Below, piece after piece: positions 21,496 through 49,150 of a stretch of 64,000 nt of DNA. The position numbers and the translations under genes are program-made. This stretch comes from Heterodontus francisci (lineage: Eukaryota), in contig NW_027142006.1 of NCBI RefSeq assembly GCF_036365525.1, positions 3,472,001 to 3,536,000 of the forward strand, given 5' to 3'. Position 1 is the first letter of the stretch. The number at the start of each line of letters is the position of its first letter. The notes beneath the pieces were generated by a model. The model had not been told where the DNA came from, did no database searches, and saw only the letters and a program-made list of their open reading frames with translations.

Positions 21496-22568
21496 ATACA
21501 TGGATGACGTTGCCGTCTTCTGCTCAGTACGCAAACACCAAGTGTCATTACGTGCTGAGGTTCTATCTGTACCCGATGTTGAGAAGGATGGACCTGGTCA
21601 CATTGCCGCGGAACGCTCCATCCAGTTGGACCGTGCCGTACCACCTATCCTGCGTGGGAAGGTTTCTGCGGAAAACACCTTTGACCACCAATCCATCAGG
21701 CAGTGGTCTGCACGGAATGTCCTCAAGGCCCTACGGGAAACGTAGATGGTGGATCCGGTCGGATGGTTCCCCGAGCAGACCGCCAAAATCATTTGGCAGA
21801 ATGCCTCATCACCAGAACTTTCAAACAAGCACCAAGATGTAGCTTGGCTCGTGGTGAGAAGAGCCCTCCCCGTCAGATCCTTCCTGCACGCCTGAAGTCT
21901 CACCCCCTCCGCACAATGCCCTCGAGGTGGCTGTGGTGAGAAAGAGACGGTTGCCCACCTCCTTCTGGAATGTGTCTTTGCAAAGCAGGTGTGGAGAGAG
22001 ATGCAGTGGTTTTTGTCGAGGTTCATCCCAAGCAGCTCTGCAACACAGGAATCTGTGCTCTATGGGCTGTTCCCAGGGACGCACACCGAGATAAACATCA
22101 ACTACTGCTGGAGGACTATCAATTCGGTGAAAGACGCCCTTTGGTCTGCCCGAAACTTGCTGGTCTTCCAGCACAAAGTGTTGTCCATGACCGAATGTTG
22201 CAGACTGGCACATTCCATGGTCCAGGACTATGTGCTGAGGGACGCACTAAAGCTTGGGGCAGCCGCAGCAAAGGCTCAATGGGGAAAGACCACTGTGTAA
22301 GTTCCCCTCATCAAGCTGAATGGAGGGGCTGGATCCATGGAAAACCCCTCGAACTTTATCTGGAAAATATTTGTGTGCTATAAAATGTAAAAATGTATCT
22401 GGCATGACAAATGAAATGGTTGTGAGGCAACTCACTCCTTTATTGAAGGAAACTGACCTCCTTTGCACTGTTTGTATTTTTTGACTTGATGCTGTTTGAA
22501 ACTGTCCGGTAATGTATTTTTTTTTCCAGATTTTGATGAATAAAGTATATTTTGGAAATAAAAAAAAA
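21496..22568 (+). mobile_element. Tx1-clade non-LTR retrotransposon, 5'-truncated; 3' end abuts the H2A start
   Basis: YMDDVAVFC RT motif joined by an internal deletion to the C-terminal region (ETVAHLLLECVFA, ...AKAQWGKTTV*), then a 3' UTR with aataaa and an A-tail followed directly by gtctggaagagg. Confidence 0.92.
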
Positions 22569-22956
22569 GTCTGGAAGAGGAAAGACCAGCGGGAAAGCTC
22601 GGGCCAAGGCCAAGTCTCGCTCCTCCCAGGCTGGAATGCAGTTCCCGGTGGGTCGTGTTCACAGGCTCCTGAGAAAGGGTAACTATGCTGAGCGTGTGGG
22701 TGCCGGAGCCCCGGTCTATCTGGCTGCTGTGCTCGAGTATCTGACCGCTGAAATCGGCGAGCTGGCCGGTAATGCGGCCCGGGACAACAAGAAGAGCCGC
22801 ATCATCCCCAGACACCTGCAGCTGGCGGTCCGCAATGACGAGGAGCTCAACAAGCTTCTGGGAGGAGTGACCATCGCTCAGGGCGGGGTGCTGCCTAATA
22901 TCCAGGCCGTGCTGCTGCCCAAGAAAACCAGCGCTCAGAGCTCCCAGAAAAAGTAA
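22567..22956 (+). pseudogene. H2A: Histone H2A pseudogene; ATG destroyed by Tx1 insertion
   Basis: [39 protein letters not shown]...LLPKKT frame is open, but the AT of ATG and the promoter are replaced by the Tx1 A-tail. Several substitutions (R17Q, L23M, L63G). Confidence 0.9.
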
Positions 22957-22986
22957 AGCGGCCAAAATGTCATCCAATAACCCAAA

Positions 22987-23002
22987 GGCTCTTTTCAGAG
23001 CC
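22987..23002 (+). terminator. Histone 3' stem-loop (HDE-like aaagggctg downstream)
   Basis: Canonical ggctcttttcagagcc. Confidence 0.95.
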
Positions 23003-23439
23003 ACCGACAGTCTCTGTGAAAGGGCTGGTTACTGTCAGGAGGGAGTCAGTGATGGAGTTATTGTAACAGTGGATTGACCTGTTTCACATCTGTCCAGGTG
23101 TGTTTTCCGTTCCCTCTCTGGATTGCGCTCTGTTTCTCTCCTCACACATCCCCCTGTACCCACCCACCCCCAGTTAAATGAAGAACTGAACTACAGGGTG
23201 TCCATCAACAATTTAATAAATGCTGCCACCTTCAATTTCATAAATTCGGAGACCCTCCTGGTGCATTAATGATAAGTGGTTTGGCGCTGATTAATTAATT
23301 TAATAATGACAGTATCTGGGTCAATTCTGGTCTGTTTTTCATTTAGACAGTTTGAATTCTGTTCTTTTTTTCCTCCGGTGATCTGAGCGCCGCTTCTCAC
23401 TGAGAATCTGCTCATGGAACAGAGTGAGTGCAGAGTAAG

Positions 23440-45933: not shown

Positions 45934-46100
45934 TTGGAAGTAATAAATTATGGACAATTGGTAATTCCCCTTCACACAGGCTTCAGGGAGACAGTGAGAA
46001 GTCACTGAAATAGTTGCTTAAACATTTTAAATAGTTGCCATTCCTGTTACAAATGTTTTGGAATTAGACAGTAATCAGCCCTTTCACAGAGACTGTGGGT

Positions 46101-46116
46101 GGCTCTGAAAAGAGCC
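46101..46116 (-). terminator. Histone 3' stem-loop
   Basis: Reverse complement ggctcttttcagagcc. Confidence 0.95.
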
Positions 46117-46146
46117 TTTGGCTTATTAGATGACATTTTGGCCGCT

Positions 46147-46519
46147 TTACGTTTTCTGGGAGCTCTGAGCGCTGGTTTTTTTGGGCAGCAGCACGGCCTG
46201 GATATTAGCCAGCACTCCGCCCTGTGCAATGGTCACCCCTCCCAGCAGCTTGTTGAGCTCCGCGTTGTCGCGGACGGCCAGTTGCAGGTGTCGGGGGATG
46301 ATGCGGTTCTTCTTGTTGTCCCGGGCCGCGTTACCGGCCAGCTCGAGGATTTCAGTGGCTAGATACTCGAGCACAGCAGCCACCACCCACAGGCTCAGCA
46401 TCGTTGCCCTTTCTCAGAAGCCTGTGTACACGGCCCACTGGGAACTCCAGTCCAGCCCGGGAGGAGTGATACTTGGCCTTGGACTGAGCTTTCCCGCTGG
46501 TCTTTCCTCTTCCTGACTT
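46147..46519 (-). pseudogene. H2A: Histone H2A pseudogene; ATG destroyed by Tx1 insertion, internal frameshifting deletion
   Basis: Minus strand: A-tail then gtcaggaagaggaaagacc..., a net 17-bp deletion in the GAGAPVY region, and C-terminal half [24 protein letters not shown]...LLPKKT. Confidence 0.92.
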
Positions 46520-49150
46520 TTTTTATTTCCAAAATATACTTTATTCATAAAAATCTGTAAGAAAAAACAATACAGAACAGTTCCAAACATCATCGAGTCA
46601 GACAATACAAAGAGTGCAAAGGAGATCAGTTTCCTTCAATACAGGAGTGAATTGCCTCACAACCCTTCCATTTCATTTTACGTACCATGTACATTTTACA
46701 GCAAACAAATATTTTCCCGATAAAGTTCGAGGGGTTTTCTATGGATCCAGCCCCTCAGTTCAGCTTGGTGGGGGGACCTTACACAGTGGTGTTTCCCCAT
46801 TGAGCCTTTGCTGCGGCTGCCCCAAGCTTTAGTACGTCCCTCAGCACGTAGTCTTGGACCTTGGAATGTGCCAGTCTGCAACATTCGGTCGTGGACAACT
46901 CTTTGTGCTGGAAGACCAGCATGTTTCGGGGGGCAGACCAAATTGATAGTCCTCCAGCAGCAGTTGATGTTTATCTCTGTGTATGTCCCTGGGAACAGCC
47001 AATACAGCACAGACTCCTGTGTTACAGAGCTGCTTGGGATGAACCTCGACAAAAACCACTGCATCTCCTTTCACACCTGCTTTGCAAAGGCACATTCCAG
47101 AAGGACGTGGGCAACCATCTCTTCCCCACCGCAGCCACCTCAAGGGCATTGTGCGAAGGGTGTGAGACTTCGGGCGTGCAGGAAGGATCTGACGGGGAGG
47201 GCTCTTCTCACCACCAGCCAAGCTACACCTTGGTGCTTGTTTGAAAGTTCTGGTGATGAGGCATTCTGTCTAATGACTTTGGCAGTCTGCTTGGGGAACC
47301 ATCCAACAGGATCCACCATCTCCTTTTCCCGTAGGGCCTTGTGGACATTCCATGCAGACCACTGCCTGATGGGTTGGTGGTCAAAGGTGTTTTTCTGCAG
47401 AAATTTTCCCACGAAGGATAGGTGGTACGGCACGGCCCAATTGGATGGATTCCAATCCTTCTCAACATCGGGTACAGATAGAACCTCAGCACATAGTGAC
47501 ACTTAGTGTTTGCGTACTGGGGATCTACACACAGCTCGATGCAGCCGCACACGATGGTAGTCATCAGGATGAGGGCAATGTTGGGTACATTTTTCCCGCC
47601 CTTATCCAGAGGTTTGAACATCGTGTCCCTCCGGACCCGGTCCATTTTGCATCCCCAGATGAAGTGGAAAATGACTTGGGTGACCACCAGAGCGCAGGAG
47701 TGGGGTATGGGCTAGACCTGCGCCACATACAGCAACAACGTGAGCACCTCGCATCTGATGACCAGGTTCTTACCCATATTGGAGAGAGATCGCTGCTCCC
47801 ACATGCTCAGCTTATGTTGTACCCTGGCTACTCACTCCTCCCAGGTTTTGGTGCACGCCCCGGCCCTACCGAACCATATCCCCAGCATCTTCAGGTACTG
47901 TGACCTAATGGTGAAGGGGACAAAGAATTGGTCAGCCCAGTTCCCAAAGAACATGGCCTCGCTCTTGCCCTGGTTAACTCTGGCCCCTGAGGCCAGTTCG
48001 AACTGGTTGCAGATGCACACAGACAGCGGGTCCAAGCAGAAGACGACGACGTCATCCATGTACAGGGAGGTTTTAACCTGAGTGGCTCTGCTGTCTGGGA
48101 TTGTCACCCCTCTTATGTTCACATCCTTCCTAATATACTCAGCAAAGGGTTCAAACAGCAAACAAACAAGACCGGGGAGAGAGGACAGCCCTGTCTGACT
48201 CCAGATTGGATCAGAAAACTTTCTGATTCCCACCCATTGATTGAGACAGCGCTACTGATATTTGTGAAGTGCAGTTTGATCCAATTGCAGATTCCCACCC
48301 CAAACCCCATTTTGGAAAGCACATCCATCATGAAGGTGTGCGATATCCTGTCACAAGCCTTCTCCTGGTCCAGACTGATGAGGCAGGTGTACACCCTCCT
48401 GTCCCGTACATAGGCGATCGTATCCCTGAGTTACGTGAGACTATCAGAGATCCTCCTGCCGGGTACAGTACAGGTCTGATCAGGGTGAATCACCAACTCC
48501 AGAGCAGAATTGACTCGACTGGCTATGACTTTGGACAGCATCTTGTAGTCAGAATTAAGTAGTGAGATGGGCTGCCAATTTCTGATTCCTGCCCTCTCCC
48601 CCTTCCGCTTGGAGATGAGGGTGATGATGCCTTTCCTCATGGATTCTGACATGCTGCCGGCCAGGAGCATACTCTCGTATCCTTCCAGCAGGTCTGGGCT
48701 GATCCAGTCCCACAGGGCCGAATACAACTCAACCAGTAAGGCATCGCTTCTGGGAGTTTTACTCGTCTCAAAGGACTTGACGGCCTTTGTCAGCTTGTCC
48801 AGAGTTAGCGGCATGTCCAGTCTCTCCCTCATGCTATCATCTAAGACAGCTGTGATAGATCACAGGAAGCTCTGCTGTCTGTGCGCTTCGCGTCAGACAG
48901 CCCAGCATAAAAGGATTTGCTAATTCTTAGTATGTCGGACTGCAAAGACGTTACCGAGCCATCCTCTTCCTTCAGGCTTCTGATGAAGCTGTGTGAAGCT
49001 TTTGGAAGAGGTAGTGCAAACACATCTCATCCTGTTCGATGGAGTGGACTCTGGACCGGAAGATGATTTTGGAGGCCTCTGTGGCAAAGAGTGAGGCCTC
49101 CTGAATCTTCACCTCATGGAGGTCCTCCTTGACCTCGACCTCTATCGTCT
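46518..49150 (-). mobile_element. Tx1 5'-truncated copy (RT to 3' end) abutting the H2A start
   Basis: Minus-strand LDQEKACD, GVRQGCPLSP, YMDDVV and the C-terminal region, then a 3' UTR with aataaa and an A-tail. Confidence 0.93.

Follow-up and report, generated by a model that had tools for sequence, protein, structure and literature searches.

A recurrent hotspot at core-histone start codons for an otherwise dispersed Tx1-like LINE in Heterodontus francisci

Histone junctions of a Tx1-like element in the window

The window analysed here is a 64,000-nucleotide stretch of the Heterodontus francisci genome (NCBI RefSeq assembly GCF_036365525.1, contig NW_027142006.1, positions 3,472,001 to 3,536,000 of the forward strand), numbered below from its first letter. 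It holds open histone genes, histone pseudogenes and several pieces of a Tx1-like long interspersed element (LINE), three of which end with their A-tail at the start codon of a histone pseudogene. One of these, event E1, is a 3′ piece on the + strand (21496..22568) made up of a short reverse transcriptase (RT)-motif fragment, an internal deletion, the C-terminus of open reading frame 2 (ORF2), the 3′ untranslated region and the A-tail. It ends at AT|G of H2A (A-tail|GTCTGG at 22568|22569), and the pseudogene that follows (22569..22956, +) is without the AT of its ATG and carries the downstream spacer of intact H2A type 2. On the minus strand, a 2.6 kb 3′ part of the element (46518..49151; E2) also ends at AT|G of H2A (A-tail|GTCAGG at 46518|46517); here the pseudogene (46140..46517, minus strand) lacks the AT, is frameshifted and has a downstream spacer like that of H2A type 1. 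Event E3 (37479..37772, +) is the 3′ end of an older subfamily and ends at an H4 start (A-tail|GTGTCTGG at 37772|37773), where an H4 pseudogene (37773..38084, +) with 87% amino-acid identity to the window's open H4 begins. E3 lies within an inverted segmental duplication (30782-38487 versus 64000-54901, pieces 86-97% identical); compared with its duplicate, this block has lost ~946 bp on the upstream side, and 294 bp of element stand in their place.

Open genes in the same window show what the unoccupied sites look like: H2B (52488..52865, +, start at 52488), H2A type 1 (53742..54131, +, start at 53742) and H4 (55301..55612, minus strand, start at 55612). The H2B gene lies in the same orientation as H2A and encodes the N-terminus MVEEKKK. 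Each of the three is altered at one residue that differs in its paralogues, and they may already be decaying.

A sequence-only reading of this stretch had described the three junctions and the empty H2A and H4 sites, and all are present at the positions it gave; the A-runs of both H2A copies, however, are one base shorter than it wrote them. Its count of three copies was too low, as the window contains five 3′ ends of the family. The other two (29738 and 45247) lie away from histone genes: one belongs to a 3′ fragment that the reading did not mention (29157..29738, +), the other to a broken, near-full-length copy (39357..45247, +) that comprises an ORF1 piece, ORF2 from ~40601, RT, C-terminus and A-tail, and whose endonuclease (EN) is interrupted by another LINE at ~40960-41950. 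Two inverted internal fragments of the family (38483..39412, minus strand) lie beside the latter. The different downstream spacers of E1 and E2, to which the reading had pointed, are those of two H2A paralogue types, each of which is also found on intact genes. None of the three histone-junction copies has a histone promoter upstream (0/3), and hence no target-site duplication is seen in them. Taken alone, the window is weaker evidence than it appears.

The window pieces map onto an unbroken young copy in which ORF2 contains Exo_endo_phos (an apurinic/apyrimidinic, or APE, endonuclease), RVT_1 and zf-RVT. The ORF1 piece at 39357-40202 matches RBD_ZCCHC3_2nd (E 2e-15) and zf-CCHC (E 1e-8), and an ORF1 with an RNA-binding domain and CCHC knuckles is a feature of the Tx1 clade. 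RT relatives at 42-48% identity carry the name 'transposon TX1 uncharacterized 149 kDa protein' (P0154, P0161), a correspondence by name only; among named proteins the closest are those of a ray, of amphibians and of a turtle, with the TX1 149 kDa proteins further off. The best solved-structure match is human L1 ORF2p (E 3e-77 across EN and RT). The hallmarks of target-primed reverse transcription (A-tail, 5′ truncation and short target duplications) are present. On these domain and protein matches, a Tx1-like identity (L1 superfamily) is well supported, in line with the sequence-only reading. A metagenome scan found no relative. Copies of the family are also seen inserted in the family's own ORF2 and in tandem at non-histone sites (L041, L036/L037, and offsets 52665 and 55448 of the C35 region).

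Independent insertions at the starts of four classes of histone gene

Across the genome, we distinguished nine in-place insertions at histone starts and, from 3′ transductions, two presumed source elements. All are in the orientation of the gene, as found with patterns searched in the sense direction only, and within ~2 nt of the ATG, a fixed register. The number of events is a lower bound, and more are possible, since 100 of 341 junction matches were covered. Five events (E4, E5, E6, E10 and E11) keep the promoter upstream and the coding sequence downstream, and three (E4, E6 and E11) have clean target-site duplications of 9-16 bp, compared with 7-18 bp at 16 dispersed junction rows.

In E4, an H4 promoter with the ATG and 8 further nt is followed by 2.2 kb of element, an A-tail and H4, with a 9-bp duplication. 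E5 is a second element, of 640 bp, at AT|G of this already occupied H4 start, upstream of E4; the tandem arrangement was matched 96 times, with four cases plus L116 inspected, and shows re-insertion at an occupied target. E6 struck another H4 variant, with a different 5′ end and a ~12-bp duplication. In E7, a 52-bp element end precedes an H2A variant on contigs C21, C23, C46 and others, with no duplication seen. E10 is a single-copy insertion at AT|G of the H2B paralogue on contig C1570, with the promoter intact and a blunt junction or a 1-2 bp duplication, and E11 lies at an H3 start with a ~16-bp duplication (five matches, two inspected). The target is thus not a single conserved sequence: H2A, H4, H2B and H3 are all struck. 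The sequence-only reading took H2B to be spared, which is true of the window but not of the genome, and its proposal that the DNA shared by H2A and H4 (M-S-G-R-G) is the target is not supported, given insertions at the same register in H2B and H3.

E8 and E9 are the presumed source elements behind two dispersed copies, which carry 22 and ~40 nt of an H2A start and a second A-rich tail inside their target duplications, an arrangement that reflects 3′ transduction from elements at H2A starts. One transduced copy (L106; C2, ~178.88 Mb) is flanked by a ~195-bp duplication, as against the usual 7-18 bp.

The element parts of E1 and E2 are 87% identical. They are sisters in two FastTree runs (0.82, and 0.93 with three shared private changes of ~28) and separated by a 99/95 branch in IQ-TREE; we regard their independence as likely, not certain. 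E3 belongs to a distinct older subfamily in the trees. In a tree of 57 copies, from which E7 was left out as too short, the histone label on 10 rows needs eight changes, at least six of them forced by well-supported branches, and a single origin of the label occurs in 0% of bootstrap trees. Histone-linked rows are no more clustered than shuffled labels (75 of 500 shuffles as low), so the tree gives these copies no lineage of their own; they are spread over several subfamilies, from old to very young. The hotspot has been used very recently, given the E10 end branch of 0.0017. One ancestral junction for all cases is ruled out by the tree and by the junctions of E4, E5, E6 and E10, and a processed histone mRNA chimera is ruled out for the in-place events by genomic promoter or spacer beyond the stem-loop. 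The view of the sequence-only reading that the element inserted repeatedly and independently at, or adjacent to, AT|G of histone start codons is upheld; its further claim that the two H2A copies are separate events shares the uncertainty of E1 and E2.

A dispersed family, duplicated arrays and the excess over chance

The 6.0 Gb assembly contains 9,910 exact matches to a 26-mer from the 3′ end, indicating at least 9,910 copies. The first 30 loci of this search all belong to the family and none ends at a histone gene (0/30). Thirty loci found with a motif of the older subfamilies, those of the window copies, likewise include none at a histone gene (0/30; one locus is shared with the first set). 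These samples come nearly entirely from contig C1 rather than from arrays, so the genome-wide counts carry more weight. Together they yield 57 distinct parsable dispersed 3′ flanks (a few loci could not be parsed), of which 0/57 are histone. By pattern, the 3′ end joined to an H2A/H4 start has 341 matches and two related patterns 38 and 96, whereas the intact H2A/H4 start has 2,018 (reversed control 100). Histone junctions reach ~480 genome-wide with duplicates included (341+96+38+5+1; the patterns overlap in part and are not exhaustive), or ~5% at most of counted ends, though the patterns are not strictly comparable. Passages of PMC4494074 set the criterion for a target-specific family at one target type in >20% of flanks, and the family falls short of that share. 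Strict histone specificity is ruled out by the 9,910 exact ends and the histone-free flanks. The sequence-only reading had spoken of a histone-targeting family, which is not supported in view of the predominance of dispersed copies, the small share of histone junctions and the lack of a separate lineage; the few independent events nonetheless form a real hotspot. A rule that ends precede GT, which fits five of five window ends, was also rejected, as only 12/57 dispersed flanks begin with GT. A pattern joining a tail with a longer T-run directly to GTC gave 0 matches.

Array duplication of a few events accounts for most of the hundreds of histone junctions. The E2 junction at 46518 was found in 30 of 30 fetched loci (one being the window itself), which are duplicates of a single insertion because their flanks are 97-99% identical. 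Thirty loci from the 341-match pattern resolve into 24 of one H4 insertion, four of the window's insertion at 22568 and two transductions. Contigs C35, C334, C712, C1395, C1806, C1960 and others contain multi-megabase regions of near-identical duplicated blocks, with histone genes and pseudogenes among transposable elements. Along C35 the E4 junction repeats every few hundred kb; a 200 kb part of this contig showed neither an H3 nor an H2B motif. At five loci (L079, L080, L085, L086 and L090) there is a deletion derivative, itself duplicated several times, in which H2B is joined to the opening 88 nt of H2A, and these to a 250-bp end of the element and then to H4.

To set the nine in-place events against chance, we modelled 30,000 copies (an estimate) and 2,500-5,000 starts. 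The expected number of events is 0.02-0.05 without a motif, 0.1-0.2 with a weak motif and 0.5-2 with 5-10-fold regional density. Among fetched loci, which had been chosen for hits, all 3′ ends within 600 nt of a histone start are these sense junctions (one was also scored against a neighbouring truncated H2A), with the sole exception of one antisense end beyond an H2A gene. Overall, we find a real, recurrent start-codon hotspot, covering all four core histones, inside an otherwise dispersed Tx1-like family.

The remaining features of the window bear on other elements. An open EN-RT LINE frame of 856 codons (16467-19037, +) presumably belongs to a CR1/L2-type element; it represents a young family, because its 3′ part is 97% identical to 45427-45935. 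Fragments at 23721-24635 (+) and 29987-30577 (minus strand) resemble the GIY-YIG endonuclease of Penelope-like elements, and the inverted duplication holds an RNase H fragment (56065-56856) that is presumably Gypsy-like. A SINE-like (short interspersed element) repeat of ~340 bp has seven copies (749-1126, 5300-5656, 8321-8688, 9822-10170, 20709-21029, 49183-49520 and 50319-50651). No tRNA genes were found in the window.

Candidate mechanism, rival explanations and significance

Dispersed flanks are biased only at the first one or two bases. At 15 dispersed sites resolved by their duplications, AYG (ATG or ACG) spans the junction in six, counted by eye, against a background of 4.8% (~8-fold, P 4e-5). 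From this base composition, the endonuclease is likely to favour ATG or ACG weakly, a preference that is insufficient by itself for the hotspot. H2B and H3 starts are hit too, so the shared Ser-Gly-Arg-Gly DNA is not required; as they have little in common with those of H2A and H4 beyond ATGG, there must be a positional cue. In H4, H2B and H3 the ATG follows a TATA-like box at a distance of 61-65 nt, and in one H2A type at ~48 nt; judging from this spacing, the ATG would be roughly 20-35 nt past the start of transcription. In the fly, histone genes are reported to hold paused polymerase for most of the cell cycle's length or a large part of it (PMC11702538).

We put roughly even odds on an explanation in which a weak endonuclease motif acts on the open 5′ ends of multicopy histone genes, and in which insertions persist because the arrays are redundant. 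In the germ line, an accessible histone 5′ end would create a regional bias, and within the open, polymerase-loaded first 20-35 nt the AYG preference would pick the start codon. Insertion parts the promoter and ATG from the coding sequence and kills that histone copy, a loss that redundant genes may tolerate. The presence in two dispersed copies of 22-40 nt from an H2A start, together with a second A-rich tail, makes it likely that transcription of elements at H2A starts ran on into the gene and that the product was copied onward. Junctions were later amplified by duplication of the arrays, the step seen directly in the flank identities. A bolder version is possible and is offered tentatively. 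In it, the lineage would have a standing, recently active ability to find replication-dependent histone start codons whatever their sequence, by reading a paused-polymerase or histone-locus state, and histone promoters would drive new source copies; this might be target specificity at an early stage, and the first case of a retrotransposon directed at a multigene family that codes for protein.

Several points weigh against the hotspot and its proposed cause, or limit the case for them. The most generous chance model (100,000 copies, 10-fold density, 5,000 starts) expects 6.65 events (P 0.23), and the three most generous cases, all with 100,000 copies, give P 0.007 to 0.23; chance comes near only there, and any copy number above 9,910, such as 30,000, is an estimate. 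Two internal H4 controls, a Lys-Val site and an internal Met codon, gave 0 and 0 matches, which favours the hotspot, but these are two windows only, both in H4. No antisense ends were seen in the promoter or coding region in fetched loci, which had been picked for sense hits. H1 starts gave no match in a joint H1/H3 pattern built from two H1 starts. Nine of the 11 events fell on H2A or H4, and one young dispersed copy (L035; C1, ~13,501,900, minus strand) immediately follows a sequence that matches the H2A start at 12/12 positions but is not histone, an arrangement with a chance of ~2e-4 that was noticed post hoc; both hint at longer sequence recognition.

The last two observations would be expected if the endonuclease read a longer motif, ATG followed by G/T and then purine-rich sequence, that histone starts happen to fit, H2A and H4 best and H2B and H3 less well, with no effect of chromatin. 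This softened form of the original H2A/H4 proposal also accommodates the re-insertion at the duplicated 11 bp of the H4 start and the likeness of some dispersed flanks to an H2A/H4 start (L146). We consider it unlikely: dispersed 3′ flanks are unbiased beyond positions 1-2, the H3 start shares little beyond its first four bases, and the first 100 of the 341 matches include just two outside histone arrays, both of them transductions and not chance copies of the motif, a comparison of low power. Self-reinforcing RNA-guided homing is quite unlikely; in it, elements at histone starts would make transcripts with histone sequence at one or both ends, and pairing of these with another histone start would direct insertion to it. 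Read-through RNA did exist, as the two transduced H2A-start tails flanked by target duplications attest, and according to PMC4494074 an element's target-specific integration can be reinforced when it is cotranscribed with the target genes; but histone-junction copies are spread over subfamilies and do not descend from each other, their tails and junction register vary between events, and H2A or H4 tails could not guide insertion to H2B or H3.

Yeast Ty and Tf1 elements are tethered by host factors. By analogy, ORF1p or ORF2p might bind a histone-locus or pausing factor and be held at a fixed distance from the start of transcription, which would suit the similar TATA-to-ATG distance in three of the four gene classes, the striking of all four core histones and the uniform orientation among the events found. 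Such tethering sits badly with the more than ~95% of copies that are dispersed and with junctions that follow the ATG itself, and is decidedly unlikely. It is very improbable that there is no hotspot at all, and that array duplication multiplied a chance insertion or two, which deletion or crossover at the shared start then carried from one histone gene to another. Duplication is indeed massive, the three window copies lack promoters and duplications, E1 and E2 pair in the FastTree runs, and deletion derivatives of the L079 class exist. Yet five events (E4, E5, E6, E10 and E11) have distinct 5′ ends and target duplications, the tree forces at least six origins, E1 and E2 are split in IQ-TREE and lie in different H2A types, and the H2B and H3 events come from young subfamilies. 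Junction anatomy and the tree have already largely refuted this account.

Mutsu and Dewa are target-preferring Tx1 families; further examples appear in passages of PMC4494074, namely Keno (U2 small nuclear RNA), Kibi and Koshi (microsatellites), Xenopus Tx1 (Tx1D) and the crocodilian Tx1-Mar. Our element resembles them in an ORF2 that combines APE endonuclease, RT and zinc finger, in its A-tail and multicopy target, and in a fixed register and tandem re-insertion around a target duplication; it differs in a target share far under 20%, four different protein-coding targets and no dedicated lineage. We do not class it as a target-specific family because of its low target share, its several targets and the absence of a lineage. 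With human L1, whose motif is TT|AAAA, and other dispersed L1-superfamily LINEs it shares a weak motif, dispersed insertion, 5′ truncation and 3′ transduction, but it has an AYG-like motif, an ORF1 with RBD_ZCCHC3 and CCHC knuckles, and a base-precise hotspot at histone start codons. Tf1, the P element and Mutator insert promoter-proximally, and Drosophila 297, at the H3 TATA box, is a precedent for a hotspot in histone arrays. A preference for the open 5′ ends of active genes is common to these and to our element; they are long terminal repeat (LTR) or DNA elements with an integrase or transposase, whereas here a non-LTR element inserts at the start codon itself. R2 in 28S ribosomal DNA likewise inserts in sense, into redundant array units that a strong host promoter drives from upstream, with possible cotranscription (passages of PMC4494074), but it is strictly site-specific, uses a restriction-like endonuclease and has only remote RT similarity.

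According to PMC4494074 and related papers, site-preferring LINEs target RNA genes, simple repeats and other transposons; neither PMC4494074 nor PMC4640811 contains the word 'histone'. PMC6136364, in the parts consulted, describes transposon-like pieces within fish histone amplicons, which is not start-codon targeting, and the portions covered of PMC12789591 and bioRxiv 10.64898/2026.06.11.731563 contain nothing on histone start-codon insertion. No histone-targeting Tx1 element was found in the literature searched; supplements, subscription papers and Repbase/Dfam lie outside it, so prior cataloguing is possible, and the PMC4494074 supplements, with their Tx1 flanks, could bear on novelty. That literature offers no precedent for this variant, a LINE hotspot that falls with base precision on the start codons of four protein-coding sequences unrelated to one another.

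Raw junction counts in duplicated arrays overstate specificity, a warning for similar surveys. If the preferred explanation is true, a weak endonuclease motif and the transcription state of the host can together yield near-specific targeting, and the origin of target specificity becomes testable in one element that shows both dispersed and targeted behaviour. Start-codon insertions would also help explain the many dead H2A and H4 copies in the histone arrays of Heterodontus francisci.

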